A stretch of 64,000 bases of DNA from a virus (IMGVR_UViG_3300009161_000031:1-64000); one strand, 5' to 3'. Numbered from the stretch's first letter, positions 12,301 to 55,108 are shown. The notes: generated from the letters alone by a model not told the origin. Translations and numbers: made by a program.

Positions 12301-12344
12301 GCGTCTGGTTTGCAAACGCTACTAAATCAAAATAGGAGAAAAAA

Positions 12345-13590: not shown

Positions 13591-13921
13591 AGATATTAGC
13601 ATGACCGTAGAGCAGCTTCGTGAAAGCCTGGGCGAAGATGCTGAAGAATTTATTGAGGTAATGGCTGTCGTACAAGACATTATTGACAATCCAAATAGTT
13701 ATCATTCTACTAAAGCAGTTAAGTACGCCGCTATTCTAGCAGCTTATAGATATAAGGTTGGCATTAAAGCGCAGCACTATAAAACTTCAGGCAATAGTAG
13801 CATTATCAATCGCAGGCGTAAGGATGTTTTTCAGACTATGTATCACGCACTTGAGGAGAATATTAATACGCTCAAATTGCTCGGACGTATCGACGCAGTT
13901 TCTGCTGGCATCCTTCGATGA
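13583..13921 (+). CDS. Conserved phage hypothetical protein
   Basis: Translationally coupled within the recombination operon. Confidence 0.5.
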   Translation: MSEDISMTVEQLRESLGEDAEEFIEVMAVVQDIIDNPNSYHSTKAVKYAAILAAYRYKVGIKAQHYKTSGNSSIINRRRKDVFQTMYHALEENINTLKLLGRIDAVSAGILR

Positions 13922-14667
13922 GGAAACTTGTCGATTTAATGGCCTTGGCTCCAGTAAAAACTGCCAAGCCTATTGTAGTCGCTGAGCCTAGTCAGATGGA
14001 AGAAGATTTAGTTGCGGCCATTGATGCTGCGATTACTGAGAAGTATATTGTAGAGCGCACTCGTAAGATAGGCGGGTTTCATCCAAGCACAACTAATGAG
14101 TGCGGTAGATATGCTGTCTATCTTTTTAGGGGTGTAACCTATCAGCCTAAGTATGATGCCAGAACTCAGCGCATCTTTGACAACGGCCATGCTACTCACG
14201 ACCGCATCTACAAATATCTAGATGATATGGGCATTTTGCTTGAGTGCGAAATACCTCTTTCATATTCTGAGCCCCCCATTGAGGGAACTGCTGATGGGAT
14301 TATTGAGTGGAATGGCAGAAAGTTAATTGAGCTTAAGTCTATCTCAGACCAAGGCTTTATGATTAGAAAAGCTCATCATAAGCCAAAAGATGATCACTAC
14401 AGACAGGCTCAGATTTATATGAGATGCCTAGATTTAGATGGCGGCTTTGTAATATATGAAAATAAGAACAATCAAGAAATCCTGCCACTGTATCTTGAGC
14501 GTAATGATGAGTTTATTGATAAGCTTTTCAAGAAATATGGTAAGATATATAACATGTATACGGAAGGCAGCCTACCAAAGCGCCCATATAAGCAAATTAC
14601 CTCTGCTACTTGCAGGATGTGTGATATATCAAGTATGTGCTGGGCTGATAAGGACGATGGAATATGA
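13918..14667 (+). CDS. Cas4-like PD-(D/E)xK exonuclease
   Basis: HPS...C; G...H; GTADG; IELKS; QAQIY; C-terminal CRMC....C. Confidence 0.85.
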   Translation: MRKLVDLMALAPVKTAKPIVVAEPSQMEEDLVAAIDAAITEKYIVERTRKIGGFHPSTTNECGRYAVYLFRGVTYQPKYDARTQRIFDNGHATHDRIYKYLDDMGILLECEIPLSYSEPPIEGTADGIIEWNGRKLIELKSISDQGFMIRKAHHKPKDDHYRQAQIYMRCLDLDGGFVIYENKNNQEILPLYLERNDEFIDKLFKKYGKIYNMYTEGSLPKRPYKQITSATCRMCDISSMCWADKDDGI

Positions 14668-39210: not shown

Positions 39211-40960
39211 TATTTAATGTAAGCAATGTGGTGTTTTAAAGATGTTGAAATAGGGCTAGCGGGTTTTTTCCTTTCTGTCGTGATGGGAAACCTGCACTAT
39301 TTGTTGTAATAGTGTTTACTAACCAGAGTTGTTTGTTGTCTTACTTTTCTTAAGATAATGGGAAAGGTTTCCCGCCCTATTTCTACTTTTTATATTCTAA
39401 GTATATCCATAATCTGTAAACTATATATCGTTAGGATATTAATAAAACTATTTTACAATCATATTGTTATTTTCGGGGGTTTTTAGAGAGTCTAATATCC
39501 CTATATAGAATAGAATCTAAGGGGTCTAGAAGGCTAGCTGATGGCCTTTGTTATTCGGGCGGGACATTGGGATATCATATCTCCCTAGTAAGAGAATAAG
39601 ATAAGAGGCAAGCCAAAAAAGATACCTACCAACAAGGAGAAAAGAATGTTAACGATAATAACAATACTATTCATAATAACCCTAAGCATACTAATAACAA
39701 AAGTTAGTTAAAACAAACATAAAGACAGAGAACAAGGTTCCGCTATGATAACGGAACTAATGACGGGGGTCTGCTGTGCCATAATGTGCATTCTATTTGA
39801 GAGTTTTTTGATATAGAATAGGCTATTTCTAGCTGTTTGTAGATGATATTCGCCTATATATAAAAGAATTTAATATAAAACACTCCCTTATATAACCCTT
39901 ACTAGGAGAATATAAGAGTCGTTTAGACCCGCCGGTTATGGGTTTTGTTGGTGTTTGGTTCATATGTATAGTATATCAAGATTATTGTAAAGTTAGAGGT
40001 TGAGTATCTCCCTCCGCAAATATGATATTAAATTATTTTATTTGTGTTTTTGTAGAAAAAGTCAAAATTTGTTCCGCTGGCGTTTTTTACATATAATGTT
40101 TCTTTATAGGTAAGTTGGCGATAATTGTTGGCGGTATTTGTTGTATTCAGTTATTGCCCGCAAATATCCTCAACAATTGTGGCATTCTTTAACTCCATAA
40201 ATAAAAAAGAAAAATATCTTTTCATAAATTCGGGACTCTATTGTTTTCCTCTATTCTTAGAGTAATTAAAACAATAAATACTAACCGTTATATCCCCGCA
40301 AATAGTTTAGACGGGATTTGAAGAATTTATCCTCTAGTCTAAACTCATATATCTACCAGCAAGTAATTACTCCAAGGTTAGACTGTCACTTTTGTGGCAG
40401 CCGAATCTGGAGTATTTTTTTTGCCCTCATTTAACGCAGTAAAAAAAAGTTTCTTTTTTCAGTTTTAGAATCAAAAACTCGAGAAAATATAAAGTTTATT
40501 TATTTCCAAATAGGTAGACGTTAAAATAACCCCAACATCTAACACCAGATAAAACGGTCGTTTTTTGCTCCTTCGTCGCAAAAAGGGACGACCGCCTAAT
40601 GTGGCTGTCTGATGTTGATGTTTGTGTGTGCGGTATTTATTACACATCCCATTTGTTATCGCACCAGAGGAGGCTGTTGTTCCAAAACAGCCGCAGGCTG
40701 TTTTGGAACAACAGGCCAACAGCTATTAGACAAAAAAAAGGGGAGAGGCTGAGGGAACGTGAAACCCCCAACCTCTCCCCTAATCTTATTTAGAAGTTTA
40801 CGTCTTTTACGCTAACTCCAACATTTACGAGATTAGTTTCATCATTTAGAATCCCACTCATTTGAGCGGTAACTAAATCTTCCATTTCTCTATCTGTAAG
40901 CATTTTTCCTTCATCGCATTCCATACCGATTATCATTGTAAATAGTCTTAGTGTTTTCAT

Positions 40961-41260
40961 TTAGAAGTCCTTTCCAAAGTGTTCATTTATTTTATAGGCT
41001 AGGTATTCTTTATTTCCATTAGCGGGGTGATTCTTTATGCTGTTTTCTAATGATGACTCTTCAGCCAACTTTACTTCAGACTTATTACCGTAAGTCTGAA
41101 CATAAAGTTGATGCCAAGCACTTTCTGCTTCTGATTTGAGAATGTCAATCTCAAACTCTAAGTCTGCTATCTTTCCATCTTTCTTACCTTTACCCATAAG
41201 GTATCCGGCAAGAACAGAACCCATCATTAGTACTACCTGAAACCAAAATAGATTTCTCAT
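40961..41260 (-). CDS. Hypothetical membrane-anchored protein
   Basis: N-terminal hydrophobic helix, then coiled coil. Confidence 0.55.
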   Translation of the reverse strand: MRNLFWFQVVLMMGSVLAGYLMGKGKKDGKIADLEFEIDILKSEAESAWHQLYVQTYGNKSEVKLAEESSLENSIKNHPANGNKEYLAYKINEHFGKDF

Positions 41261-41550
41261 TGAATAAAATCTCCCGTCAACTCAAACAAACCATCTAGTT
41301 TGTTATTTACAACAATAAGCACTCTCTTTAGTTGAGCATTTTGTTCTTCTAAGTCATAAAGATTATTTAGTTTTTTGTGTATCTCTTCCATAGTTCTTGT
41401 TATTCTGGCAATCTCAACATCTTTCTCTACAACAGTCATTTCTAAAGAAGTAATCACTTCTGCTAACTCAAAGTTAGAATAGTTCTCTAACTCAAAGATT
41501 CTTGCTTGTCTAACACTACTAGGAATAAATACTTCTTCTCTATTCTCCAT
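41257..41550 (-). CDS. Hypothetical coiled-coil protein
   Basis: ORF with RBS; heptad pattern. Confidence 0.55.
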   Translation of the reverse strand: MENREEVFIPSSVRQARIFELENYSNFELAEVITSLEMTVVEKDVEIARITRTMEEIHKKLNNLYDLEEQNAQLKRVLIVVNNKLDGLFELTGDFIQ

Positions 41551-41967
41551 TTTTATTTCCTATCTATTAGGCCCGATTAGTCGGGGGTAAGGGGTGGAAC
41601 CGATAAGGCCACCCTAGCACACTCTCCCGCTTGTCTCGCATTGGCAAACTAAAAAAGAAAAAACCAAAATTTTGATCCGGGGAATAGTTCTACATAATGT
41701 TTTCGCATAGAGATGTTTGAGATTATTATTGTTGATTATTGTTGCCGTTAGTTATTCGCTTATTTATTCCAGTTTATTGTTGAGATAAGACGAAGAGATG
41801 CTGGCGTGCCAAAATCGCCGGAGGCGATTTTGGCACGCCAGCCCTGAAGCGGACGCGTCAAGGGGAGGGGCCGTCGCCCCTCCCCTATTCGCCGCAGACC
41901 TTCGGTGCCTGCCTTCCCTTCGGGTCGGGGGCTTGTTCCCCTACCCGCTACTAGTAACCATCGCAGG

Positions 41968-42234
41968 CTAGGCTCTCACCCGTACTTGGGCGAAACCCTC
42001 GGGCGAGAAGTCTACGCGGCACTCTCCCGCTTGAACCTCCGCCCAATGCTTGCGAATGGTTGCGGACACCGTAGGCCGGTCGCTTTTGGCGACAGCGCCG
42101 AATGTCCCCTTGAGGGCTACGCCTTGCTTGGGGGTAACCTTCGCAAGAGTCTCAAGAAGTTCTACAATAAGAACCTTCTTACGACCTCGTGGGGAAACCT
42201 GTACGGAATCCGCTGAAATGAACTCATCGTTCAT
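41968..42234 (-). CDS. Cassette protein, 'SPRGRKK' family copy 1
   Basis: RBS GGAGGTG; near-identical to 43042-43308 and 44662-44928. Confidence 0.8.
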   Translation of the reverse strand: MNDEFISADSVQVSPRGRKKVLIVELLETLAKVTPKQGVALKGTFGAVAKSDRPTVSATIRKHWAEVQAGECRVDFSPEGFAQVRVRA

Positions 42235-42507
42235 TTGTCTAATCACCTCCCGTCTTGAGCCGTTGCTCTTAGTGTTTCGAAGAATCCGAACTTTACCGGA
42301 TTACCTGACAAAGAACAGACTACCGGCCTAGAGCTATTGAGTCCACTTCTGCTCATTCTTTTATTTTTATTCTCAATAACTAACCTACTAAAAAAGCCTC
42401 ATTATTTGACACCACTAGATGCTGTCGTGCCAGGATCGCCTGCGGCGATTTTGGCACGACAGCCCACTCCGTAGCCTCGGGGGTTTCCCCCCGAGGATTT
42501 GCGGAAC

Positions 42508-42717
42508 TTAGACGTACTGCTTCTCACATAGGCAGCATTTGTCGTTGTAGTAAAAATCTGATTCCTTGCGCTGTTTGATGGTCTGCCTGCGAACGATTAG
42601 GGGTATGTAACTACCGCCTTTGGCTCGGGGGTCATTGTGAAAACAGTCGTGACAGACTAAGCCGTTACCGCCTAGGCGATGAACAAAATAACAGCCTTTG
42701 AGTTTTGGAGAAGTCAT
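42508..42717 (-). CDS. Cassette protein, small Cys-rich zinc finger
   Basis: CHDC...CCLC; own promoter and RBS. Confidence 0.65.
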   Translation of the reverse strand: MTSPKLKGCYFVHRLGGNGLVCHDCFHNDPRAKGGSYIPLIVRRQTIKQRKESDFYYNDKCCLCEKQYV

Positions 42718-43041
42718 TATGAGCCTTTCGGACTAGGGGACTTGATTACATACTGAAATCTACTAGCTAACGGCCTGCGAGTCAAGCCTTAGCGAGTATT
42801 TATTCTATTTATTTATTTATCTAACCCCAAGCAATGCTGGCGCTCCAAATCGCCGGAGGCGATTTGGAGCGCCAGCCCCGAGCGCGACAAGGCCCGCTCT
42901 GAGGGGGCAGAGCGGGCCTTGAGCTAGAGTAATTCGGGGGAGAGGTTCGCACCTCTCCCCCTACGGCTGCGGCTATCGGGATTGCCGCTGGCACCTCGCA
43001 CCCCGTAGCAAGCGGGGGGCGCTACTGATACGATTCATCCG

Positions 43042-43308
43042 CTAGCGGATACGCACCTGCGCGTATCCCTCCGGTGAGAAATCAATACGGCATTCGCCGC
43101 TTTGTATAACGCACCAGTGCTTCCGAATCGTTGCTGCTACCGTCGGGCGGTCACTCTTGGCGACTACTCCAAAGGTTCCCTTAAGCGCAACACCCTGCTC
43201 GGGTGTGACGTTCGAGAGAGTGTCAAGCAAATCCTGAATAAGAATTTTCTTGCGCCCTCGCGGGGATACCTGTACGGCATCAGCAGGTAGAAATTCATCT
43301 GCTGGCAT
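43042..43308 (-). CDS. Cassette protein, 'SPRGRKK' family copy 2
   Basis: RBS GAGGTG; paralog. Confidence 0.8.
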   Translation of the reverse strand: MPADEFLPADAVQVSPRGRKKILIQDLLDTLSNVTPEQGVALKGTFGVVAKSDRPTVAATIRKHWCVIQSGECRIDFSPEGYAQVRIR

Positions 43309-43580
43309 AATAATCACCTCGATTCTTGGGCCGTTGCCCGATAGTTACGATGGGAACCTTGCCGTTCCCTGCTGACAAAGACCAAACTAATCGCGATGCC
43401 GTTCCCAGTCAATTTCTGTACGTCATTATTACCTCAAGAAACTTATCATTTGCGCACATTCCATAAAATGTAAATACCGCTACGACTTGACACGGGCGTG
43501 CCTTTTTGCGAGAGCAAAAAGGCACGCCCGCCCTGAGCAACCGGCATCAGGGCGAGCGTACGGCCTTTGGAGGCTCGCTG

Positions 43581-43871
43581 TTAGGCGAAATCCTCGGGGG
43601 TGATGGAGTCCCAATCCATTGCGTCTACGACTTCCTCGGGGCTAATCCCGAGGAGTTCGGTCACCTCTAGGTGACTAACGCCTAAATCTAGCGCTCGGGC
43701 GATAATGGCGGGGCCGAGAGCGTCAAAGGCGCGTGACATAAGAAGCACACCCGTTATGGCGTGACGGATAGAGTCGGGGTCGCCATTGACGACCAACTCG
43801 TGAAGGTTAAACATTGCCTGTACGCTTACCTCTAGCGTTTCTGTTAGTAGATTACGCTCTTGCTCGTTCAT
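43581..43871 (-). CDS. Cassette protein with C-terminal HTH-like segment
   Basis: ARALDLGVSHLEVTELLGISPEEV. Confidence 0.6.
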   Translation of the reverse strand: MNEQERNLLTETLEVSVQAMFNLHELVVNGDPDSIRHAITGVLLMSRAFDALGPAIIARALDLGVSHLEVTELLGISPEEVVDAMDWDSITPEDFA

Positions 43872-44089
43872 TCGGTGGAGCCTCTCTGTTAGGTGACTTG
43901 CTTACAAAAGAGAAACTACTAGCTATTGGCCTGCGAGTCAAGTCGGAGCGGGGATTTATTCTATTTTATTTACAATGCCAAGCCAAGAGATGCTGGCGCT
44001 CCAAATCGCCGGAGGCGATTTGGAGCGCCAGCGCATAGCAAAGCCCCCACCGTTGCCGGTAGGGGCTTTTATTGCTAAGGCGGGGTGGC

Positions 44090-44446
44090 TTAGTTATCCA
44101 GCCCCTTAAACGTGCGTTCGATGTCTCGGATTGTCTGCGCTGCCCACGCATAGGCGAGTCCCTGTAACTCGTCTGCGATAGGCTCCCCCACTAGAAGGCA
44201 GAGAGCGATTCTCAAGCCCTCTTGCTCTCCCTCTATTTTTAGGGCTTCGGCATTGTGCGGGTAGTTAAATGCGTCTAGGCGTAACTCGCTTATTCCTAGT
44301 CGAATGGCTATGGCCTCAACAGCCGATTTGAGGTCTTTAACCCTTTCCATTATCGGATAATGGAAACCTGCCTGATAGTGAAAAAAGTTAAAGATCGCGT
44401 CTTTAAGTTTTTTTTCGTATGCTTCTGCGCTAGTCGCGATGTCCAT
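44090..44446 (-). CDS. Cassette hypothetical protein
   Basis: Lies between promoter 44487-44515 and a terminator hairpin. Confidence 0.65.
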   Translation of the reverse strand: MDIATSAEAYEKKLKDAIFNFFHYQAGFHYPIMERVKDLKSAVEAIAIRLGISELRLDAFNYPHNAEALKIEGEQEGLRIALCLLVGEPIADELQGLAYAWAAQTIRDIERTFKGLDN

Positions 44447-44661
44447 TGGGAGAGCCTTTCGGTTGGGTGGCTTGGGTACAAATGAGAAACTACCAGCTCA
44501 CGGCCTGCGAGTCAAGCCGGAGCGGGTATTTATTCTATTTATTTTTGTTAGCGATACCAGATAATGCTGGCGCTCCAAATCGCCGGAGGCGATTTGGAGC
44601 GCCAGCGCATAGGAAAGCCCCCGCCTCACGGCAGGGGCTTTCCCGTATTCCGCTAAGGGGG

Positions 44662-44928
44662 TTAGCGGATTCTTACCTGAGCGTATCCCTCAGGCGAAAA
44701 GTCAATACGGCACTCTGAAGCCTGAACCTCGCTCCAATGCTTGCGGATAGTCGCCGCAACCGTTGGCCGGTCAGACTTAGCAACCTCACCGAACGTACCT
44801 TTGAGAGATACGCCTTGCTTTGCGGTTACTTTCTTTAGTGTTGCGAGTAGGTCGGGGATTAGGATTTTCTTTCGACCTCGGGGCGATACCTGAACATCGC
44901 TAGCGTCAATAAACTCATCTACGGGCAT
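44662..44928 (-). CDS. Cassette protein, 'SPRGRKK' family copy 3
   Basis: RBS AAAGGAAAG; paralog. Confidence 0.8.
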   Translation of the reverse strand: MPVDEFIDASDVQVSPRGRKKILIPDLLATLKKVTAKQGVSLKGTFGEVAKSDRPTVAATIRKHWSEVQASECRIDFSPEGYAQVRIR

Positions 44929-45198
44929 TTGGCACTTTCCTTTTCTTAGTAGGTAGTTAGAGTAGAAAGTCTCCGCTCCAACAGAGATAAATCTACTCCT
45001 CCCTACTAAGTGAGTCAAGTTGGAGCGAGAGTTTTTCTAGAAACTTTTTGAGTAGCTGTCGGCCCGAGCGTTTATTCCACCTAACATAAAACCTAAGACG
45101 ACTTGACACGGGCGTGCCTTTTTGCGAGGAACGAGCAAAAAGGCACGCCCGCCCTGAGCAACCGGCATCAGGGCGAGCGTGCGGCCTTGCGGAGCGGA

Positions 45199-45426
45199 CT
45201 AGATAATCACGCCCTCCATCAGGTTTACCAACGCATCAGCCGTAGTTACCGGAGCGTAGCCGTAGGCAATAGCGGCGATTATTTCTCTATCGCCATTTTT
45301 TGCGGCGACTCTTAGAACGTGAGAGATAATGGCGACGACATTAGAGTCATTGCTTATCTTATGGGCGATAGAATCGGTGCGATTTATTAGAGCGCTTCTT
45401 ATGGCTTGAGTTTGTTCAGGATTCAC
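45199..45426 (-). CDS. Cassette hypothetical protein
   Basis: GTG start after a GAAAGGCTC leader. Confidence 0.6.
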   Translation of the reverse strand: MNPEQTQAIRSALINRTDSIAHKISNDSNVVAIISHVLRVAAKNGDREIIAAIAYGYAPVTTADALVNLMEGVII

Positions 45427-45712
45427 GTTGGAGCCTTTCGGTTAGGCGACTTGCTTACAAGAGAGAAACTACCAGCTATTGGCCTACGAGTCAAGCCGGA
45501 GAAGGTATTTATTCTATTTTATTTTAGAACTGATACCGAGCAATGCTGGCGCTCCAAATCGCCGGAGGCGATTTGGAGCGCCAGCCCTGAACGCAACAAA
45601 GCCCGCTCTGAGGGGGCAGAGCGGGCTTTGCGATAATGGCGGCCCCCCACGCCCCGTATGCGGGCGTAATGCCTTCAGCAAACCCAACGGGTTATGCGGG
45701 GGGGGCCACGAA

Positions 45713-45853
45713 CTAGAAGTTGAGAGACTCAATCCACGCTGCGACAATCGGCAGGACTATGAACGCCGAGATGCCGAGCAGATACGGGAAGACCTGCCTC
45801 CACCTATCTTGGAGACTAAAGAATACCTCTACGCTATCGAAACGACGGTTCAT
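45713..45853 (-). CDS. 46-aa membrane peptide (not in the ORF track)
   Basis: MNRRFDSVEVFFSLQDRWRQVFPYLLGISAFIVLPIVAAWIESLNF; TGATG overlap with the upstream ORF. Confidence 0.55.
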   Translation of the reverse strand: MNRRFDSVEVFFSLQDRWRQVFPYLLGISAFIVLPIVAAWIESLNF

Positions 45854-46008
45854 CAGATTACCTTTCCGATTAGTGTGATGACTAGAGCGCCTAGACCTAT
45901 TAGGGCTAGGAATCCTAGCGTTATTAGGGTCACGCCGAGTAGCCCTGCGGCCACCTCTGCGAAACTATCTTCGCGAACATTCTTGAACCACACGTTAGAT
46001 AGTTTCAT
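45853..46008 (-). CDS. Small membrane protein
   Basis: RBS AAAGGAAAA; long hydrophobic C-terminus. Confidence 0.6.
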   Translation of the reverse strand: MKLSNVWFKNVREDSFAEVAAGLLGVTLITLGFLALIGLGALVITLIGKVI

Positions 46009-46234
46009 AGTTTTCCTTTGCTCGGGGTTGGTTTCCATAGTTAGAAACTACTAGCTGATGGCCTGCGAGTCAAGTCTATTTGGTTATTTATTCTAAGTTT
46101 ATCTAATACCGATACCAGCCTTTGCTGTCGTGCCTCACATTTATGTGAGGTGTCGTGAGGCACGACAGCCCGATAGGTTTCCGGGCGCGAAAAAGCCCCC
46201 CTTGCGGGGGGCTTCTGCCGACTCTCCGAGGCCG

Positions 46235-46576
46235 CTAGGCGACCTCGGGGCGGTCTTCCCGGCAGTCGTGATGCCCGCTGTAGCAAAACTCGTCGCTATC
46301 GAACTCTATAGAGTCATCGCCCTCAACGAAAATAAGCATCCCTGCGGCCATAGCCTCGTAATGCCCCTCGGGGTTCTGAATGATAGCCATGTAATCCCTG
46401 TCCGTTTGAGGGTCAAGCGCCTCAACGGCATAACCGATTAGAGCAGTTTTATCCGCCCAGTCCGCGTCCCAAAAGTTTCGAGACTCAATAAAGCGCATAA
46501 GTCTCCATTCTTTGACATCAAGTAAGCCGCCAAAGTGAAAATCTAGCAAGTGGCGAACGGTTTCGATGGTCTCCAT
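46235..46576 (-). CDS. Cassette protein, paralog of 46832-47179
   Basis: IETVRHLLDFH...NPEG.YEAMA.GML. Confidence 0.75.
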   Translation of the reverse strand: METIETVRHLLDFHFGGLLDVKEWRLMRFIESRNFWDADWADKTALIGYAVEALDPQTDRDYMAIIQNPEGHYEAMAAGMLIFVEGDDSIEFDSDEFCYSGHHDCREDRPEVA

Positions 46577-46831
46577 TTTTTCCCCTTAGATCGGGAGTGC
46601 GGGGTGCGCTCCAACAAGGACAAAACTAATCGCGTTACCTATTTGAGTCAAGTTATAGAGGCAAATTGAGGAAAAGAATAGGTTCACTCTAAGTAGCCAA
46701 AAGCTATCACCACTCAACGCTGGCGTGCCTCACATTTTTTTGTGAGGTGCCGTGAGGCACGCCAGCCCGATGGGTTTCCGGGCGCGAAAAAGCCCCCCTT
46801 GCGGGGGGCTTCTGCCGACTCTCCGAGGCCG

Positions 46832-47179
46832 CTAGGCAGCCTCGGGGCGAGATTCCCGGCAGTCGTCGTGCTGGTCGATACAAAACTCATCAAGGTCGAA
46901 ATCTAAGATACCTGAGGATTCTATGTGGCTAAGCATACCGACAGCCATCGCTTCGTAGTATCCCTCGGGGTTATTCATAATGACCTGATAATCATCGGCG
47001 GTCTGAGGGTTGATAACGCTCACCGCAAAACCGATAAGCGTCATTTTGTTTTCCCAATTTGCTTCCCAAAAGTTACGAAACATAATGGCACGCATTAGTT
47101 TCCATTCATCGTGGAATGGCATAGTAAATGAATCCTGATGAAAATCTAGCAAGTGGCGAACGGTTTCGATGTTGTCCAT
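46832..47179 (-). CDS. Cassette protein, paralog of 46235-46576
   Basis: Tandem duplicated cassette. Confidence 0.75.
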   Translation of the reverse strand: MDNIETVRHLLDFHQDSFTMPFHDEWKLMRAIMFRNFWEANWENKMTLIGFAVSVINPQTADDYQVIMNNPEGYYEAMAVGMLSHIESSGILDFDLDEFCIDQHDDCRESRPEAA

Positions 47180-47422
47180 TTTGTCCCCTTAGGTTGGGAG
47201 TGCCGGTTGCGCTCCAACAAGGACAAAACTAATCGCGTTTCGGTTTTGAGTCAACTTCTGCTAACGATTTGAGCAAAAGAATAGGTTCACTCTAAGTGGC
47301 CACCAGCTACCACCAGACCCAGCGGGCGCACGCTACGAGGAACGAGTAGCGGGCAGCGTGCGCCCGCCCCCGAGGGGGAGTCACGGAGAGTGGTTGCCCA
47401 CCCTCCGTGACCCGACCGGCCC

Positions 47423-47728
47423 CTACAGGTAGTCGTGGGCGATGTTGCGGATTATGTCGTTTACCCAACGGTCGGGCCAATCGAGGTAATCCTGAGACTC
47501 TGCGAATACGTCCACCGCATTGGCAAATGTGGTCACGCCTACGATAGCGTGCGGGAATCCCATACGGACTAAGGATAGGCTCTGAGTCCATTCCATAGAG
47601 TCTAGGGCTAGGATAAGGGGCATTAGGGCATCTATTGAGTGAACAGATCGCGCCTCGCCGCTGGCGTGAGCCTCAATGAGGCTAAGGCGTAGCGCCTTGC
47701 CCTCTGCGTCTAGTGAGTAATTCGGCAT
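47423..47728 (-). CDS. Cassette hypothetical protein
   Basis: Fits between promoter and terminator hairpin. Confidence 0.65.
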   Translation of the reverse strand: MPNYSLDAEGKALRLSLIEAHASGEARSVHSIDALMPLILALDSMEWTQSLSLVRMGFPHAIVGVTTFANAVDVFAESQDYLDWPDRWVNDIIRNIAHDYL

Positions 47729-47973
47729 AATCGTGGAACCTTTCAGGTGAGGTGCGCCGGTTGCGCTCCAACAAGGACAAACCTACTAGCGTTCCGAATC
47801 TGAGTCAAGGCGGGAGAGCAAATTGAGGAAACAATGATGTTCACTCTAAGTGGCCAAAAGCTACCACCACACTCAGCGGGCGCACGCTACGAGGAACGAG
47901 TAGCGGGCAGCGTGCGCCCGCCCCCGAGGGGGGGTCACGGAGAGTGGTTGCCCACTCTCCGTGACCGGGTCGG

Positions 47974-48219
47974 TTAGAAATCGCACTCGTGGTTTACGTC
48001 GTGGTCGTCAAGGTTGGGAAGTTCGTGCCTCCACGCTTGGTAGAGAATCGCTTCCTCTAGCGCTGCTGCGCTGTAGTTTAGGATTGTGTAATCGAGCCAC
48101 TTAGCGCCCGACTCTGCGGAAATCGTGCGAGAAATCTCGCAACGAAATGCGCGAACTAATGGGGCAAGTGCCGAACGCGACGCGGTTTCGGCGGCTAGGA
48201 CTTTCTGTGTGTTGGTCAT
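47974..48219 (-). CDS. Cassette hypothetical protein, predicted leaderless mRNA
   Basis: ATG 6 nt after the -10 box TAGATT. Confidence 0.65.
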   Translation of the reverse strand: MTNTQKVLAAETASRSALAPLVRAFRCEISRTISAESGAKWLDYTILNYSAAALEEAILYQAWRHELPNLDDHDVNHECDF

Positions 48220-48430
48220 AAGAGAAATCTACCCTAGATTAGATTCTGAGTCTAGTTATGCGGCTAAAGATTGTCTCAAGATGTTGAGGTTAGAATACTC
48301 ACTCTAAGTGGCCAAAAGCTATCACCAGCCGTTGCGGGCGCACGCTACGAGGAACGAGTAGCGGGCAGCGTGCGCCCGCCCCCGAGGGGGGCCACGGAGA
48401 GTGGTTGCCCACTCTCCGTGACCGGGTCGG

Positions 48431-48643
48431 TTACTCCTCCCAGCCGACGATGCGGTCGGGGACTTCCCAGTCCTCAACGTCGCCGTCGTCCTCGCTGCGG
48501 ACAGAGCGGGCGTAGACCTCGGGGTCATCGAAACTGAATTCGTAAACCTTGACCTCGATAGGAGCGCCCCACTGAATTCCAGAGAGGGCCGCGTCCCACT
48601 CCATTGCCAATTCGCTTGCGGTCTTGCCAGAGACGTTCGGCAT
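48431..48643 (-). CDS. Cassette acidic protein
   Basis: C-terminal EDDGDVEDWEVPDRIVGWEE shared with 49546-49731. Confidence 0.7.
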   Translation of the reverse strand: MPNVSGKTASELAMEWDAALSGIQWGAPIEVKVYEFSFDDPEVYARSVRSEDDGDVEDWEVPDRIVGWEE

Positions 48644-48911
48644 CTGCCAAATCCATTCTCTCAGGGAGTCCGCCGGTTGCTCGCTCCAATAAGTACAAAC
48701 TACTCGCGTTCGGAATCTGAGTCAACTTCTGCGTGCGAATTGAGGTAAAAATGATGTTCACTCTAAGTGGCCAAAAGCTATCACCACACAACGCTGGCGC
48801 ACGCTACGAGGGACGAGTAGGCGGCAGCGTGCGCCAGCCCGGGCCAAGGTCACTCTGAGTGATGAGGGGGGAGCGCCCCGACCCTTGCGGGCCGGGGCTT
48901 GACCCCTAGAC

Positions 48912-49220
48912 TCAGATTGAGAGTCTAAAGACCCTGGCTAGGTCTATGATTTCATCGCAAGCGGCTATTGCCTCGGTGCGAGGGACATCGTCGCCGCGTA
49001 GTGGGGCTAGGTCACCCAACACGCTTTGCATAGCGTGGCTGTAGGGGTTATCCATTCCCCAAATGCCGGTGGTCATGAGCACGTTGAAGATAACGTGAGC
49101 GTTCATGAACGTGCACCCCCACAATTCCTGTATCCGTTCCTTAATAAGTACGGAATTGGTGCTTACGGTTACCGCCGCATCGGTTGTCGCGGTTGCGACC
49201 TCTCCAGAGAAGTTCGGCAT
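48912..49220 (-). CDS. Cassette protein, paralog of 50028-50336
   Basis: MPNFSGEVATA...RI.ELW. Confidence 0.7.
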   Translation of the reverse strand: MPNFSGEVATATTDAAVTVSTNSVLIKERIQELWGCTFMNAHVIFNVLMTTGIWGMDNPYSHAMQSVLGDLAPLRGDDVPRTEAIAACDEIIDLARVFRLSI

Positions 49221-49545
49221 GTGGCCAAATCCATTCTCTCGGGGAGGGAGCCGGTTGCTCTCTCCAATAAGTACAAACTACCAAACATCAGTATGCGAGT
49301 CTATTTGTGCGCCTAATTATTACCTCAAGATTAAAAAAAGAATCCAAAAAAAACCAGCTCCCGGCTTGACACGGGCGAGCGGGTGTGATTTGTTCTGCGG
49401 CCACTCTAAGTGACATTTTTTCCCATACCAGCCAACGCGGGCGAGCTTAGCACACGGTAGATCGTGTGTGCGTATGGGGCGGCTCGCCCGCCGAACCCCA
49501 AAGGGGAGGGGAGAGGCTGGAGCCTCTCCCCTTTGCCCCCGGGAG

Positions 49546-49731
49546 TTACTCCTCCCAGCCGGTGATGCGGTCGGGGACTTCCCAGTCCTCAACATCGCCG
49601 TCATCCTCAAGCGGGAACCGGTCGGGGCTGACCGTGTGGAGGATGCTGTCCAACTGTCCGAGCGGATGCCCGAACATGTGTTCTATCAAGCCGCGTGCGT
49701 CAAACGCGGGGCTAGCAGAGAAGTTCGGCAT
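49546..49731 (-). CDS. Cassette acidic protein (chimeric)
   Basis: MPNFS start as in 48912-49220; C-terminus as in 48431-48643. Confidence 0.7.
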   Translation of the reverse strand: MPNFSASPAFDARGLIEHMFGHPLGQLDSILHTVSPDRFPLEDDGDVEDWEVPDRITGWEE

Positions 49732-50027
49732 GTGGCCAAATCCATTCTCTCGGGGAGGGAGCCGGTCGCTCTCTCCAATAAGTACAAACTACCAGCTAAT
49801 GGCTTGCGAGTCTATTTCTGCGGGCTATTTCTTTGCATTATTTCTTTTTTTATTTGTGAGCAGAACTTGACAGCGTACTAAACTTGTACTAGACTACCCC
49901 ACCACTCTGCGCTGGCGCACGCTACGAGGGACGAGTAGGCGGCAGCGTGCGCCAGCCCGGGCCAATGTCACTCTGAGTGATGAGGGGGGGGGGAGCGCCC
50001 CGACCCTTGCGGGCCGGGGCTTGACCC

Positions 50028-50336
50028 CTAGGCTGCGTCTACCCAATCCATCATTAGGTAAACGATTACCTCGGAGGCAATCATCGCCTCGGAGTGTGGA
50101 GTATTAGTCCGACGCAGGCCGATTAGTGAGGCCATTACTCTCTCGCCTGCGGTATGGGCCATTCCCTCGGTTGCCCAAATCATAGTGGACGATAGGGCTC
50201 CGAATACCGCTTGAGCGGTTCTTGAGTCAACATTCCACAATTCTTTGATGCGCTTAGTGATTGCTATTGAGCAAGGCGCTACGGTTACCGCCGTATCGGT
50301 TGCCGCGATTGCGACCTCTCCAGAGAAGGTAGGCAT
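50028..50336 (-). CDS. Cassette protein, paralog of 48912-49220
   Basis: MPTFSGEVAIA...RIKELW. Confidence 0.7.
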   Translation of the reverse strand: MPTFSGEVAIAATDTAVTVAPCSIAITKRIKELWNVDSRTAQAVFGALSSTMIWATEGMAHTAGERVMASLIGLRRTNTPHSEAMIASEVIVYLMMDWVDAA

Positions 50337-50654
50337 TTGGCCAAATCCAGTCTCTCGGGGAGCGAGCCGGTTGCTCTCTCCAATAAGTACAATTTACCAA
50401 ACATCAGTGAGTGAGTCTATTTCTGCGCCTCATTGTTTCCTCAAGATAATAAAAGAAATCCAGCTCCCGGCTTGACACGCAGCCGCGGCTGTGATTTATT
50501 CTGCGACCACTCTAAGTGACCAAAAATGCCAAACCAAGCCGAGCGGGCGAGCTTAGCACACGAAGAGCGTGTGTGCGTATGGGGCGGCTCGCCCGCCGAA
50601 CCCCAAAAGGGGAGGGGAGGGGCCGGAGCCCCCCCCCCTTGCTCCCCCGGAGGG

Positions 50655-50948
50655 TTACTCCTCGTCTCGGAAGACGGGGTACCAACGCTCACCCTCGGGG
50701 GTGACGATGAGAACATCGGCAGCCTCGGCAGCGGCGACGAGAATGTCCACCGTCGCTTCGAGTATTAGCAACTCGAAGGTTGTGGTGAACGAGGTGACCG
50801 CGTCAAGCGCCTTGTCCGTAGCCTTGAACGCGTCGGCCAACTCTTGCGCCTCGTAGCGGTTCACGTAGAACCCCTCTAGGCGTTTCGCGAGAACCGTCGC
50901 GTCGGCTACCGCGGGTGCGGTCTTGCTAAGAGAGAGAATCGGCTTCAT
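50655..50948 (-). CDS. Cassette hypothetical protein
   Basis: Start MKPILSLSK chosen by leader alignment (alternative ATG 50960). Confidence 0.65.
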   Translation of the reverse strand: MKPILSLSKTAPAVADATVLAKRLEGFYVNRYEAQELADAFKATDKALDAVTSFTTTFELLILEATVDILVAAAEAADVLIVTPEGERWYPVFRDEE

Positions 50949-51270
50949 GCCGTAGTCCATTCTCTTGGGGAGTCCGCCGGTTGCTCGCTCCGATAAGTAC
51001 AAACTACCAAACACGCCTATGCGAGTCCATTTCTGCGCCTCATTTTTTCCTCAAGATAAAAAAAAGAATCAAAAAAAAACTAGCTCCCGGCTTGACACGC
51101 AGCCGCGGCTGTGATTTATTTTATGACCACTCTAAGTGACCAAAAATGCCAAACCAAGCCGAGCGGGCGATCCTAGCACACGGTAGATCGTGTGTGCTTG
51201 GGCGGCTCGCCCGCGTGACCCCAAAGGGGGAGGGGAGAGGCCGGAGCCCCTCCCCTTGTTCCCGGCTCCC

Positions 51271-51480
51271 TTAGACTTCGTACCCGTGGCGGGTAAGAAT
51301 GTCCCGGGTCATTGAGACGATTGTCTCGTTGAGGGCAACCATCTCAGCCCCGAACGATTCGCCGTGAGAGCGAATGTTGATGTCAATCCCCGCATTGCGG
51401 ATTGACATTCTCAGCCGGGACTCAGCGTCGCGAACGAAGTCGCGAAGCACACTTGCCCCACTCTCGGTTATTCCGGCCAT
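51271..51480 (-). CDS. Cassette hypothetical protein
   Basis: RBS AAGGAGA before MAGITES. Confidence 0.65.
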   Translation of the reverse strand: MAGITESGASVLRDFVRDAESRLRMSIRNAGIDINIRSHGESFGAEMVALNETIVSMTRDILTRHGYEV

Positions 51481-51802
51481 AACTGTCTCCTTAGGTTCGT
51501 GGAGCGAACCGGTTGTTCCCTCCAACAAGTACTAACCTATCGCGTCCCCGTGTGCGAGTCCACTTCTGCGCCTAAATGTTTCCTCAAGATAAAAAAAAGA
51601 ATCGAAAAAAAACCAGCTCCCGGCTTGACACGGCGGCGCGCCTGTGATTTATTCTGCGGCCACTCTAAGTGACATTTTTTCCGCCCCCAGTTCTCGCGGG
51701 CGATCCTAGCACACGGTAGATCGTGTGTGCTTGGGCGGCTCGCCCGCGTGACCCCAAAGGGGAGGGGAGGGGCCGGAGCCCCCCCCCCTTTTCCCGGGAA
51801 GT

Positions 51803-52048
51803 TTACTTTGTCCACTTAATGGCAAAGTCGATTGCCTTAGGCAACATCACTTGGATGTCGTACTCATCCTCGGTGTAGTAGTCTGTGATGAGGTACTGTA
51901 GCGCCTCACTTATGACCTCGGGGGAGAGTGTGGCAACAAACTCCATGGCCGCCTTGACGCACATGATAGGCATGTGAATCGGGTCAAGGCTAACGGCCTT
52001 GGCGTGTGCCGCGATTGCGGCCTTGCTAAGAGAGAGAATCGGCTCCAT
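51803..52048 (-). CDS. Cassette hypothetical protein
   Basis: MEPILSLSK N-terminus shared with 50655-50948. Confidence 0.65.
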   Translation of the reverse strand: MEPILSLSKAAIAAHAKAVSLDPIHMPIMCVKAAMEFVATLSPEVISEALQYLITDYYTEDEYDIQVMLPKAIDFAIKWTK

Positions 52049-52331
52049 GCCGTAATCCATTCTCTAGGGGAGTCCGCCGGTTGCGTGCTCCGATAAGTAC
52101 AAACTACCAAACACGCGTAGGTGAGTCCACTTCTGCGCCTCATTATTACCTCAAGATAATAAAAAAAATAAATCCGGCTCCCGACTTGACACGGGGCCGC
52201 GGCTGTGATTTATTTCACGGCCACTCTAAGTGGTCAAAAAAGCGTATCCATATTTAGCGGGCGATCCTAGCACACGAAGAGCGTGTGTGCTGTCCGGGCC
52301 GCCCACGTAACTGTTGTTCTGGGGGGCCGCT

Positions 52332-52441
52332 GGGCGCGGCGAGCCGCGATGTGGGGCGCGGCGAGCCGCGATGTGGGGCGCGGCGAGCCGCGATGTGGGG
52401 CGCGGCGAGCCGCGATGTGGGGCGCGGCGAGACGCGATGTG
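52332..52441 (+). repeat. Tandem repeat, 5 x 22 bp GGGCGCGGCGAGCCGCGATGTG
   Basis: Read directly; last copy has one mismatch. Confidence 0.95.
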
Positions 52442-52538
52442 GGGTACGTCAAGCTGACTCCAGGCCAGAACCAGGGCTCGGGCCTGGGCGCGCAGAGGGG
52501 GGAGAGGCCGGAGCCCCTCCCCCGCCTCGCCTGCGGGG

Positions 52539-52652
52539 TTATGCGATGCAGTAGATTAGGAAGCAGAGCAGCTCTGCCCTGCGCTCTTCGCTCAAGAGCG
52601 GGGTCGTGTGGTACGTGTAGTCGAGCAACATAATCAGTTCGCCGTGTGTCAT
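52539..52652 (-). CDS. 37-aa cassette peptide (not in the ORF track)
   Basis: MTHGELIMLLDYTYHTTPLLSEERRAELLCFLIYCIA; RBS AAAGGAAAA; promoter 52694-52722. Confidence 0.6.
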   Translation of the reverse strand: MTHGELIMLLDYTYHTTPLLSEERRAELLCFLIYCIA

Positions 52653-52848
52653 AGTTTTCCTTTTTTCGGGGAGCCGGTTGCTCCGATAAAGATAACTTAT
52701 CACCGGCCCTAGTGTGAGTCAAGTTGGAGCGGGTATTTCTTTTATTTTATTTATCGGGCCGCGCTGTTGGCCGCGCTGTCGGGGTAGGTCGCGTGGTGTG
52801 TGCTGTTGTGTGAGTAGGGCAGGGCGGGTACGCCCTGCTGGCTCTGCC

Positions 52849-52946
52849 CTGGCCTGACCCAGGGTCGCGAGCTGGCCTGACCCAGGGCCGCGAGCTGGCC
52901 TGACCCAGGGCCGCGAGCTGGCCTGACCCAGGGCCGCGAGCTGGCC
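52849..52946 (+). repeat. Tandem repeat, about 4.3 x 23 bp CTGGCCTGACCCAGGGCCGCGAG
   Basis: Read directly; first copy has one mismatch. Confidence 0.95.
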
Positions 52947-53072
52947 GCGTCCTGGCCTACACGCGACAACGCCGCGACCCACGCTATCGGGTCGCGGTGT
53001 TCGCCTATGGCGGTACGATAACCCGCACCCCTTGAGACTCTCGCACTAGGCGAGAGTCTCGCGGGCTACGTG

Positions 53073-53294
53073 CTAGGCGCTTAGGGCTATTAGTTCGGTT
53101 GCGACGTTACCGGCGTTGGCGATTGTGTGGACTAGTGCGGCCTCAAGCGCGGTAGTCTGTCCATCGGTCGCAAGCATTAGCAACATCTCGCGGATAGTCC
53201 GGTCGGCGTTGGAATGGCCAAGAATCGCCTCGGTCACTCGGCGCGTTATTTCGTCAAGCCGTATTTCTACTGCGCGGTGCTGGTGGTGATTCAT
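53073..53294 (-). CDS. Hypothetical protein
   Basis: RBS AAAGGGGA; followed by a 64-bp repeat with hairpin. Confidence 0.6.
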   Translation of the reverse strand: MNHHQHRAVEIRLDEITRRVTEAILGHSNADRTIREMLLMLATDGQTTALEAALVHTIANAGNVATELIALSA

Positions 53295-53382
53295 TATGTC
53301 CCCTTTGGTTGGTTGGTTGGTGGTACGGTAACCCGCACCCCTTGAGACTCTCGCACTAGGCGAGAGTCTCGCGGGCTACGTG

Positions 53383-53664
53383 CTAAACGCTTACGTGGTG
53401 GAACGCTATCACCGCGTTCGCGTTCTCGGCACCGATTACGTTCCCACCGATTACGTGACCGGCGAGACGCGCAAGCCATACGCGGCGCTCTTTAGTTGGC
53501 ATCGCGGCTATTGCTATCGCGGCACCACGTAGGCGAGGCTCTGACTCAAACAGTAGGGCCGCGTTTGCCTTGAGGCGGAGACTCAAGGCATCTTGCTCCC
53601 CTACTACTTGCGCGCGGTCCGCGTTGCCACCGGTGTCCGGTAGGTCTAGCGTGGAATCGAACAT
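53383..53664 (-). CDS. Hypothetical protein
   Basis: RBS AAAGGGGA before MFDSTL; followed by the same 64-bp repeat. Confidence 0.6.
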   Translation of the reverse strand: MFDSTLDLPDTGGNADRAQVVGEQDALSLRLKANAALLFESEPRLRGAAIAIAAMPTKERRVWLARLAGHVIGGNVIGAENANAVIAFHHVSV

Positions 53665-54100
53665 TTGTTCCCCTTTGGTTAGATTCCGAGCGGGTGTCTC
53701 CCGCTCGGCCTTGCCCCTAAAGCGTACCGCGTCGCGGGTGCCGCGCATAGCATCGGGGCCGCGATTAGGCGAAGAATCGGGAGCTTGACCGCGCAGCGTG
53801 GCCAGCTATGGGCCGATTCTCACGCCGCGTGGTCGTTGGAGGTCGTTCTGGCAGATGGTGCGCCAGCACGACAGACTTCTCCTAATATTTATTCAATTTT
53901 TCAAAAATATGTATTCAAGTTTTTGAATTCTTGCATTCAAGTTTTTGAATTTTTGGGTTGTTGTATATTTATGATGAAAGGGGGGCTTTTGGGGTTGTTT
54001 GGTTATATTTATTGGTATGTAGGCACTCTCTGTAAGGTTCGCATGTTTCGTCGCTCTACGGGGCACACAGGGGGCTCTCCGGGGATTGTACACGCCTATA

Positions 54101-55108
54101 TCATGGGCCTGTTTGCATACCTATTGTTGCTTTGTTGTGTTTGATGATTTGGCTTGCTACCCATTGGGCGACGGGTGCTGCGATGCCGTTTCCGATCATG
54201 CGGAGTCTGGGTGTATCTTTGACGGCTCTGCCGTCTGCGAGCGTGGCGCAATGGCCTTCGGGCCAGCCCATGAGTCGTTCGCATTCCAATGGGCTAAGCC
54301 GCCGGAGTTGATGGGTCCCGCCCGTTTCGGGTCTGAGGTTATCGACCGCAATGAGGGTCGATTCGCGTTCATGGGTGCTCGCGACCAATGATGGGGCTAT
54401 TGTTCCTTCGCCGTATTTTCCATATCCTGTTGATACAAAGATGCTTGGCGCTGGAGGATCTCCAAGAGTTGTTCCGGGATCGGGGCGTTGCGGCTTTGAA
54501 TTCGTTTCATGATGCCTGCGCAAGCTTTTGGGCTGAGGGTATATCGTGGGTGCGGACTCTCCTCCAGCATGGAAATCAGCGATGAGAAAGACTCTTCGCC
54601 TGCGTTGGGATAAGCCGAAGTTTTGAGCATCCAGGATTCGCCATTCGATTGCCATTGCCCCCAGCCCAACCATACTTTCGAGTACACGGAGAAATGACTG
54701 TCCATGTTCGGCACTAAGGAGTCCAACAACATTTTCTGCAACGGCGTATCGGGGATAAATTCCATCTGTGGCCTCTCTCATTTCTCGGATAATGCGGGCC
54801 GCTTCAAAGAAGAGAACTGACCGCTGACCTTTAAAGCCCTGCCGGGTGTCACCATAGACACCAGCGTTGCTTACATCCTGACAGGGGAACCCAAATGTGA
54901 TGATATCAACAGGCTCTATGTCATATCCGTTGATATCAACTATATCACCATATCTAGTGACGTTAGGCCAATGCCGTTCTAGGATGCTAGTGCAGCGCTC
55001 GTCTTTTTCGACTTGCCACTTGCATTCTAGTCCCGCAGCATCAAAGCCTAAATCTAATCCACCTACTCCAGCAAAAAGTGACCCATAGGTCATTGTTTTA
55101 GATATCAA
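54101..55108 (-). CDS. DNA (cytosine-5) methyltransferase
   Basis: SLFAGVGG; GFPCQD; ENV; QRRRRVF; RRLSPLECERLMG; IGNG. Confidence 0.93.
   Translation of the reverse strand: MISKTMTYGSLFAGVGGLDLGFDAAGLECKWQVEKDERCTSILERHWPNVTRYGDIVDINGYDIEPVDIITFGFPCQDVSNAGVYGDTRQGFKGQRSVLFFEAARIIREMREATDGIYPRYAVAENVVGLLSAEHGQSFLRVLESMVGLGAMAIEWRILDAQNFGLSQRRRRVFLIADFHAGGESAPTIYPQPKSLRRHHETNSKPQRPDPGTTLGDPPAPSIFVSTGYGKYGEGTIAPSLVASTHERESTLIAVDNLRPETGGTHQLRRLSPLECERLMGWPEGHCATLADGRAVKDTPRLRMIGNGIAAPVAQWVASQIIKHNKATIGMQTGP
54397..54765 (-). CDS. Nested alternative-frame ORF resembling the M.EcoHK31I beta polypeptide
   Basis: SSL..MLE...PRYTLSPKACAGIMKR motif, lying inside the MTase gene. Confidence 0.6.
   Translation of the reverse strand: MEFIPDTPLQKMLLDSLVPNMDSHFSVYSKVWLGWGQWQSNGESWMLKTSAYPNAGEESFSSLISMLEESPHPRYTLSPKACAGIMKRIQSRNAPIPEQLLEILQRQASLYQQDMENTAKEQ

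Follow-up and report, generated by a model that had tools for sequence, protein, structure and literature searches.

Mobile regulatory cassettes known as promoter-early stem-loops (PeSLs) occur in the hyperplastic regions of T4-type phages (Arbiol et al., 2010, PMC2839356; Comeau et al., 2014, PMC4122927). It has been proposed that the phage itself supplies the machinery for homologous recombination between these elements, and mini-circles were detected by inverse polymerase chain reaction (PMC2839356; PMC4122927). Here, an array of small ORFan genes was analysed in an uncultured freshwater phage of ~101 kb in which, as with PeSLs, composite terminator/promoter blocks are repeated between the ORFans of a variable region. 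The window, i.e. the whole stretch of DNA that was analysed (64,000 nucleotides; IMGVR_UViG_3300009161_000031, positions 1–64000), covers the opening 64 kb of a virus record of 101,003 bp; the ends of this record overlap by 123 bp, and IMG/VR lists it as 100% complete with direct terminal repeats. The array is GC-rich and comprises about 22 expression units on the minus strand (41800–53750), between the AT-rich backbone gene O0 (41257–41550) at the near border and a gene for a C5 DNA methyltransferase (54101–55108) at the far border. Homologous recombination and gene conversion between the dispersed intergenic repeats, within the genome and between co-infecting relatives, probably shuffle the parts of this hyperplastic accessory array.

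Scaffold blocks, cargo genes and natural variants

The 19 well-defined units out of about 22 were numbered O1–O19. In the island, the open reading frames (ORFs) run along the minus strand, and each intergenic region, read in that direction, consists of the upstream stop codon, a GC-rich terminator-type hairpin, a palindrome (36–55 nt, with perfect arms of 9–20 nt), a spacer, a promoter-like motif, a leader carrying a Shine–Dalgarno sequence and the ATG. The promoter-like motif (TTGACTC-like, N17, TAGTTT-like) was found in 19/19 units, and 7/7 classes of 3′ block fold to two tandem hairpins (z of −5.7 to −11.9 versus shuffled sequence); both are treated here as putative promoters and terminators. 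Spacers are AT-rich in O2–O8, whereas those of O9–O14 and O16–O19, but not that of O15, contain CACTTAGAGTG.

Identical blocks are joined to different cargo. The palindrome P1 (41 nt; GCTGGCGCTCCAAATCGCC-NNN followed by the reverse complement of GCTGGCGCTCCAAATCGCC) is identical at 41/41 positions at 42836, 43992, 44566 and 45545, 3′ of O3, O5, O6 and O8, and is paired with terminator Ta after O3 and O8 and with terminator Tb after O5 and O6. The preliminary description of this locus had listed several sets of shared blocks, and all of them were recovered. At 42836 and 45545, P1 is followed by the same hairpin, GCCCGCTCTGAGGGGGCAGAGCGGGC, with unrelated cargo (O3, one of three paralogs named SPRGRKK, and O8); at 43493 and 45109 the shared block consists of palindrome Pb and hairpin Tc, 3′ of the unrelated O4 and O7; at 43992 and 44566 it is P1 with Tb, 3′ of O5 and O6, which again differ; and at 47322, 47876 and 48334 the palindromes are identical at 46/46 positions and the terminators 83–96% identical, after the unrelated O11, O12 and O13. 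Palindrome identity in shuffled sequence has a mean of 53% and a 99.5th percentile of 65%, compared with the 100% observed, while the ORF pairs behind shared blocks are 49–55% identical in nucleotides, which is the null level, and gave no match to one another in blastp. Block sharing is far beyond chance.

The converse arrangement is seen in the SPRGRKK family (O1, O3 and O6), the members of which share 77–80% amino-acid identity. Each had been described as sitting on a different terminator and a different leader. Their terminators do differ (29–55% pairwise identity, null mean 48%), but homology (67% identity) exists between the O1 and O3 leaders and reaches 29–32 nt beyond the ATG, and only the O6 leader is unrelated. 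The other ORF families are F2 (O9/O10) and F3 (O14/O16). Whole-unit tandem duplicates are present, namely O9/O10, whose Td terminators are 98% identical, and O14 with its flanks/O16. Further pairs are alike over part of their length alone: O13 and O15 in the last 20 residues, and O17 and O19 in the first 17.

Pairwise identity matrices were built for the spacer, promoter, leader, ORF, terminator and palindrome and were compared by Mantel tests. ORF similarity gave r values of −0.17 to +0.09 against every flanking part and of +0.02 against array position. Scaffold similarity tracked proximity for the spacer (r = 0.52), terminator (0.33) and palindrome (0.44; P <= 0.002 for all three), more weakly for the leader (0.21) and not significantly for the promoter (0.13). 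Since spacer, terminator and palindrome similarity correlates with proximity and ORF similarity does not, three regional scaffold zones (O2–O8, O9–O13 and O14–O19) extend over unrelated cargo; sharing partners are 1–5 units apart and sharing is not array-wide. Homologous ORFs occur in just 2/12 unit pairs having palindromes at least 94% identical, and a common terminator in just 2/6 pairs of homologous ORFs. The preliminary description had proposed that such parts be compared for congruence and had named congruent trees for all parts as the outcome that would speak against it; the parts proved incongruent.

Adjacent segments of single intergenic regions also disagree. The 28 informative sites of the quartet 5′ of O14, O16, O17 and O18 fell into 7 runs in which all three possible groupings were backed (P < 5e-5; 0/20,000 shuffles gave as few runs). 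For the quartet 5′ of O2, O4, O5 and O7, 15 sites formed 6 runs (P = 0.02), and the Ta hairpin is present in just two of the four. Rates of divergence likewise differ between neighbours. The proportion of synonymous differences among the SPRGRKK paralogs is 0.79–0.90 and thus saturated (nonsynonymous, 0.14–0.16), but the palindromes that follow O3 and O6 still agree at 41/41 positions; for the O9 and O10 ORFs, the synonymous divergence (dS) is 1.67 versus 98% identity of their terminators. With saturated synonymous sites beside identical blocks, uniform divergence after duplication is insufficient, whereas recent copying between blocks suffices.

Homology between units had been said to break at or near start and stop codons, as if ORFs were exchanged as units. 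Ends of homology blocks are indeed enriched within 15 nt of a start or stop codon (35/124 distinct ends versus 13.7 expected), so that the statement holds for about a quarter of the ends, but palindrome edges are equally enriched (30/124 within 15 nt versus 14.3 expected; 65 versus 28 expected for the two combined, P < 2e-4). The remaining ends lie elsewhere, including 5–20 codons within ORFs and 50–130 nt 3′ of stop codons, and an additional recurrent break falls directly after CACTTAGAGTG. Homology of type-C leaders extends 5–10 codons into the ORF (MPNFSG... N-termini), the chimeric pairs O13/O15 and O17/O19 break inside the ORF, and several ORFs retain a private 3′ untranslated region (UTR) of 50–130 nt ahead of a shared terminator. 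Exchange of ORFs as units was therefore only partly right: some breaks are internal to ORFs, and in the close relative L001 an entire expression unit, promoter and terminator included, has moved.

A scan of metagenomes of the Joint Genome Institute (JGI) yielded 16 loci in six lineages, two of them on ~97-kb contigs. All related loci have a GC-rich array (50–80% GC) adjoining an AT-rich backbone, with 1–3 SPRGRKK copies near the backbone end of the array and repeated blocks of ~90–250 nt at cassette spacing. Because this layout is common to all of them, the array is real and typical of the family rather than a chimera.

L001 is 90–100% identical to the window, but its cassette order is O13–O11–O12–O9′ rather than the O13–O12–O11–O10–O9 of the window; O11 and O12 are swapped and O10 is missing. 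The changed junctions lie directly after CACTTAGAGTG on the 5′ side and inside the terminator/palindrome block on the 3′ side, and the slot-specific spacers hold their order. The core of the O9 ORF is only ~55–60% identical between L001 and the window, whereas its flanks are 80–98% and O6 and O7 98–100% identical. Two L001 palindromes (140–185 and 1151–1196 of that contig) combine outer arms of class Pd with inner segments of Pd′ or of a third variant; mosaicism thus extends inside the palindrome.

Backbone DNA of L005 is 88–96% identical to that of the window (97% in protein for O0 and 98% for a neighbouring ORF). L005 spans the entire array, ~7% of which matches, and nothing in it could be recognised apart from the SPRGRKK genes and an O8b-like gene. 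The latter (about 3400–3600 in L004/L005) is inverted relative to the SPRGRKK genes, and in L010 the cassettes beyond the SPRGRKK genes (10700–14386) are on the opposite strand to them, so that orientation is not fixed across the family. In a distant lineage, L010 carries one extra cassette between direct repeats of ~133 nt, and L013 has the repeat once. Compared with the window, contigs of a sediment run (X4) have O8 adjoining O2 with five units skipped, lack O16 through a 695-nt deletion and carry a single O9/O10 hybrid; they are supporting evidence, not proof. One further joint from this mapping, 52250 to 50542, was discarded as an artefact of the window stretch ending inside a repeat. The Mantel tests, the quartets and the natural variants agree with the preliminary description that scaffold parts are mixed and matched by recombination and not merely by tandem duplication and divergence.

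Probable homologous exchange and its alternatives

Each small ORFan would constitute an insulated expression unit on the minus strand. The intergenic blocks fall into few sequence classes and would therefore behave like direct repeats scattered through the array. Their homologous recombination and gene conversion, probably by the phage's own RecA homolog, would even out the blocks inside a neighbourhood, couple any block with any cargo, and delete, duplicate, reorder or replace whole units or ORF cores, the exchange taking place within one genome and among co-infecting relatives. A full-length, bacterial-type RecA homolog is encoded at 12345–13298 on the plus strand (E of 4e-26 versus solved RecA structures). 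Searches of the complete 101-kb genome for tyrosine (PF00589), serine (PF00239) and Y1 HUH (PF01797) recombinases gave no match, the control being PF00589, which was found in 14/14 control genomes. Identity tracts at junctions are 23–130 nt in length. The palindromes may stimulate the exchange, for example through hairpin-induced breaks. Whole-unit tandem duplication contributed as well.

Several points weigh against homologous exchange as set out here. Strong purifying selection on exact regulatory sequence could explain part of the block identity. The −10-like TAGTTT agrees with the Escherichia coli consensus TATAAT at just 3/6 positions, and because it scores poorly a generic σ70/terminator scan misses most of the unit promoters. 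The variants come from metagenome and Logan contigs, which may break or be mis-joined at repeats, and L001 and run X4 are possibly not independent samples. Finally, conservation of the outer 10 bp of the palindromes across distant lineages hints at sequence-specific recognition; a sequence-specific hairpin base is unneeded by plain homologous recombination and so leaves room for a dedicated factor.

Such a factor is central to an integron-like, hairpin-directed exchange of cassettes, in which the palindromes or CACTTAGAGTG are cut and rejoined by an unrecognised array protein, for example SPRGRKK; we regard this as unlikely. It would fit the distribution of perfect hairpins with arms of at least 12 nt, 20/20 of which in the 101-kb genome are confined to 40.5–53.5 kb (the array plus the adjoining AT-rich DNA at lower coordinates). 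It would also fit the outer stem GCTGKCGYTC...GARCGMCAGC, which is kept in 24 distinct palindromes from six lineages (window 41800–53400; L002, L008, L010, L011, L014 and L015) while the inner 8–9 bp vary yet stay perfectly complementary around a loop of mostly 3 nt. No cassette protein other than SPRGRKK, moreover, is conserved across all related arrays, and both changed 5′ junctions of L001 directly follow CACTTAGAGTG. However, none of the recombinase families searched for was detected, and the integron core GTTRRRY is neither enriched (117 matches versus 121 expected) nor positioned at palindrome ends. Unlike the cassettes of integrons, every unit carries a promoter-like motif itself, and breaks are scattered, occurring at start and stop codons, at either edge of the palindromes, in spacers and inside ORFs. 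A fixed site after CACTTAGAGTG was considered for the L001 junctions and rejected: a 23-nt tract is identical in the spacers, which diverge only on its upstream side, and with crossovers random in identity tracts of 23 and 46 nt the combination of endpoints has a probability of ~0.2, so that these junctions are no argument for a fixed site.

The AlphaFold model of SPRGRKK (predicted local distance difference test score of 74.6) comprises three helices followed by a β-hairpin, with a low-confidence PRGRKK arm; compared with the PDB it gave no significant match, and its resemblance to winged-helix/MarR proteins is weak (E of 0.3–1). Judged from its sequence, SPRGRKK is under strong purifying selection. 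Relatives were found in metagenomes only, and a profile search detected none in the viral contig collection or in 185,579 prokaryote genomes. The exact P1 palindrome had no match in IMG/VR. A degenerate pattern was found there in 31 contigs, with a full palindrome only in L036 (19-nt arms) and perhaps L038 (16-nt arms), and L036 has an SPRGRKK-like ORF (32% identical) near the palindrome. The other contigs were set aside, as only the imposed ends fit and they look like chance occurrences in GC-rich DNA. Speculatively, the 41-nt palindromes might be recognition hairpins of an undescribed phage system for cassette exchange or insulation, with SPRGRKK as its factor, no recombinase of a known family and an array GC content arising from very frequent GC-biased gene conversion; this, too, seems improbable.

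Copy-choice independent of RecA, i.e. template switching during replication between hairpin-forming repeats, could yield deletions, duplications and chimeras. Long perfect palindromes stall replication forks; here they stand at every unit boundary, the indels are bordered by direct repeats, and some junction identity tracts are just ~23 nt. Slippage, however, hardly explains an O9 core exchanged for an allele with 55% identity or the near-total turnover of the array beside backbones that are 88–96% identical. Both call for exchange between different genomes, and the phage does have a RecA. Copy-choice is accordingly a doubtful account of the array.

Simple tandem duplication and divergence, with regulatory blocks held by selection and ORFs diverged past recognition, has the whole-unit duplicates O9/O10 and O14/O16 with their flanks to its credit, as well as the fall of scaffold similarity with array distance. 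It does not accommodate neighbouring segments that back conflicting quartet groupings, SPRGRKK ORFs that are conserved within unrelated flanks while type-A units show the reverse, blocks of 41–46 nt that are 100% identical beside genes with saturated synonymous sites, or the cassette reordering and allele replacement in close relatives. As the sole cause it is contradicted by these data, and we give it very little credence. An assembly artefact, be it a chimeric contig that fuses AT-rich phage DNA to that of a GC-rich organism or an assembler that collapsed or shuffled repeats, is suggested by the breaking of short-read contigs at repeated palindromes and by the sharply departing GC content of the island, but is extremely unlikely given that array/backbone junctions are seen independently in L005, L010, L011, L007 and L002, that L005 covers methyltransferase, array and backbone in one piece, that two further runs contain 92–93% of sampled words of the window and that the genome closes by its terminal overlap.

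Unit positions and genome context

All units are on the minus strand. Unit O1 (41800–42420) has palindrome Pa′ (41800–41842), a 3′ region (41843–41967) with the hairpin GGGGAGGGG, SPRGRKK paralog A (41968–42234) and the leader akin to that of O3. Unit O2 (42421–42835) has palindrome Pa″ (42421–42463), an ORF for a Cys-rich protein of 69 residues (42508–42717), and a type-A promoter (42757–42785) and leader. SPRGRKK paralog B (43042–43308) is the cargo of unit O3 (42836–43493), which has P1 (42836–42876), the Ta hairpin (about 42892–42917) and the unit's own 3′ UTR. Type-A promoters and leaders are also found in O4 (43494–43991; ORF 43581–43871; palindrome Pb, 43494–43529; terminator Tc), O5 (43992–44565; ORF 44090–44446; P1, 43992–44032; terminator Tb) and O7 (45110–45544; ORF 45199–45426; palindrome Pb, 45110–45150; terminator Tc). 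Between the last two, O6 (44566–45109) joins P1 (44566–44606) and terminator Tb to SPRGRKK paralog C (44662–44928) and a unique leader. O8 (45545–46123) has P1 (45545–45585), Ta (about 45601–45626), two overlapping ORFs for small membrane proteins (45853–46038 and 45713–45853) and a type-A promoter, and is nearly leaderless.

Units O9 and O10 (46124–47321), the tandem duplicate of family F2, have ORFs at 46235–46576 and 46832–47179, palindromes Pc at 46124–46169 and 46719–46766, and terminator Td in common. The mutually unrelated ORFs of O11, O12 and O13 (47322–48792) lie at 47423–47728, 47974–48219 and 48431–48643, each followed on its 3′ side by terminator Te and the identical 46-nt palindrome Pd (47322–47367, 47876–47921 and 48334–48379), then by a spacer ending in CACTTAGAGTG. 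O14, O15 and O16 (48793–50542; ORFs 48912–49220, 49546–49731 and 50028–50336) have leaders of 92–98% identity, and the paralogs O14 and O16 (F3) have identical palindromes Pd′ (48793–48838 and 49911–49956). O17, O18 and O19 (50543–52256; ORFs 50655–50963, 51271–51480 and 51803–52060) have mosaic intergenic regions with palindromes Pe/Pe′ (50543–50596, 51163–51214 and 51696–51747), GGGGAG-type terminators and long spacers that hold CACTTAGAGTG and a plus-strand TTGACA-type motif.

This plus-strand motif is present in the spacers of O14 and O16–O19. As TTGACA-N17-TTTATT it aims into CACTCTAAGTG and the palindrome at 49340–49420, 50450–50520, 51070–51140, 51600–51670 and 52165–52235, and a possible product is a small antisense RNA directed against the 3′ end of the adjacent unit. 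In the generic scan, the GC hairpin inside the spacer of this motif, together with the TTTATT run, is scored as terminator-like. Towards the methyltransferase end, GC-rich tandem arrays occupy the intergenic DNA around O20 (52310–52476 and 52826–52963; units of 22 nt in about six copies and 23 nt in about five). An additional cassette class there is marked by a 76-nt block, in copies 95% identical (53008–53083 and 53318–53393), that borders O21 on both sides and contains the palindrome GAGACTCTCGC-N5-GCGAGAGTCTC. Elements of the array type occur just outside the island as well: the AT-rich stretch 40555–40785 contains a 41-nt palindrome with 19-nt arms at 40674 (CTGTTGTTCC...GGAACAACAG), which resembles one in L010, and a GGGGAGAGG hairpin.

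Database searches with the cassettes returned little. None of the 20 cassette ORFs scanned matched Pfam, none of a subset of 10 matched PHROGs, no Rfam family was above threshold in the array region, and family F2 had no homologs outside itself among 1.8 billion representative proteins. Neither the array nor the backbone had a megablast match in a collection of 50,697 phage records. Contigs of a lake metatranscriptome (run X7) fall within the single units O1, O3, O7 and O11, which is a weak hint that cassette units are expressed in the lake, strand, transcript ends and DNA carry-over being indistinguishable in these contigs.

The backbone encodes a DnaE-type Pol III α subunit with a PHP domain (8893–12300), a DnaB-like helicase, a DnaG-type primase, ThyX, a large terminase and an endolysin-like protein. 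Assignment of a putative exonuclease (1116–2363) as SbcD/Mre11 was dropped because neither PDB sequences nor Pfam families gave a match. The backbone zone has a GC content of ~41% and a GC content at third codon positions (GC3) of 39%; the zone at 23–41 kb (GC ~32%, GC3 18.5%) holds small plus-strand ORFs and two tRNAs; and the zone at 41.8–55.1 kb has a GC content of 52–62%, with a GC3 of 60% in the cassette ORFs. These three GC3 compartments coexist in one circularly closing phage genome.

Comparison with known systems

From work in 2000 by Juhala and coworkers and by Hendrix and coworkers, morons are said to be autonomous promoter–gene–terminator units, found in lambdoid phages among others, whose composition deviates. 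The cassettes resemble them as single small genes with their own promoter-like and terminator-like elements and a composition unlike that of their neighbours (GC3 of 60% versus 39% and 18.5%). Morons, however, mostly occur singly, inserted between essential genes and with flanks that are unrelated, whereas about 20 tandem units share recombining scaffold blocks here.

With integrons (intI, attI, attC), the array has in common a tandem series of cassettes that contain one gene each and end in a palindrome, imperfect or perfect, and the gain, loss and reordering of cassettes. It differs in that no IntI-type tyrosine recombinase was found in the complete phage genome and no attC core sites (RYYYAAC/GTTRRRY) at the phage palindromes, which are perfect, without extrahelical bases, and end in GCTGKCG...CGMCAGC. 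Integron cassettes are promoterless and served by a common Pc, whereas each phage cassette has a promoter-like motif and a terminator hairpin, and the phage breakpoints are not limited to one site. Hairpin elements of the REP/RAYT and IS200/IS605 types differ in that no Y1 HUH transposase (PF01797) was found in the phage genome.

The resemblance to PeSLs extends further. Every gene is a transcriptionally insulated unit, as far as sequence motifs tell in this phage, and a σ70-like promoter stands beside a stem-loop terminator in 19/19 units, although the promoters here are putative, with a −10 element that is weak relative to the E. coli consensus. Many copies are concentrated in an ORFan-rich variable region (here about 22 units per 12 kb), and between relatives ORFans are inserted, deleted, replaced and reordered with endpoints in the repeats (L001, X4, and L010 versus L013). 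The host phage, however, is not T4-type and carries a DnaE-type Pol III α, DnaB, DnaG and a bacterial-type RecA. Because the replication module is not T4-type, the array is classed as working like PeSLs and not as a member of the T4 PeSLs. Each block here adds a separate palindrome of 36–55 nt, the ~41-nt forms with 19-bp arms having the cross-lineage outer stem; the blocks, of 200–320 nt, are themselves mosaics of five sub-parts; and the whole array is a compositional island.

Such arrays house fast-evolving accessory genes of phages, often for countering host defence or for host takeover, and the rules of exchange help to find and date these genes. The natural record is unusually clean: all five scaffold sub-parts are mosaic, near-identical genomes swap, lose and replace cassettes, and the array has been turned over almost wholly beside a conserved backbone. 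The cross-lineage palindrome, the multi-copy SPRGRKK gene and the three-way GC3 split (18%, 39% and 60%) are further features of note. What is new with respect to PeSLs is the setting in a phage with a DnaE-type polymerase, the island with a GC3 of 60% and the 41-nt palindromes with their cross-lineage outer stem. Recombination at repeated regulatory cassettes, known from T4-type phages, is thereby extended to freshwater phages of ~100 kb that belong to an unrelated family.

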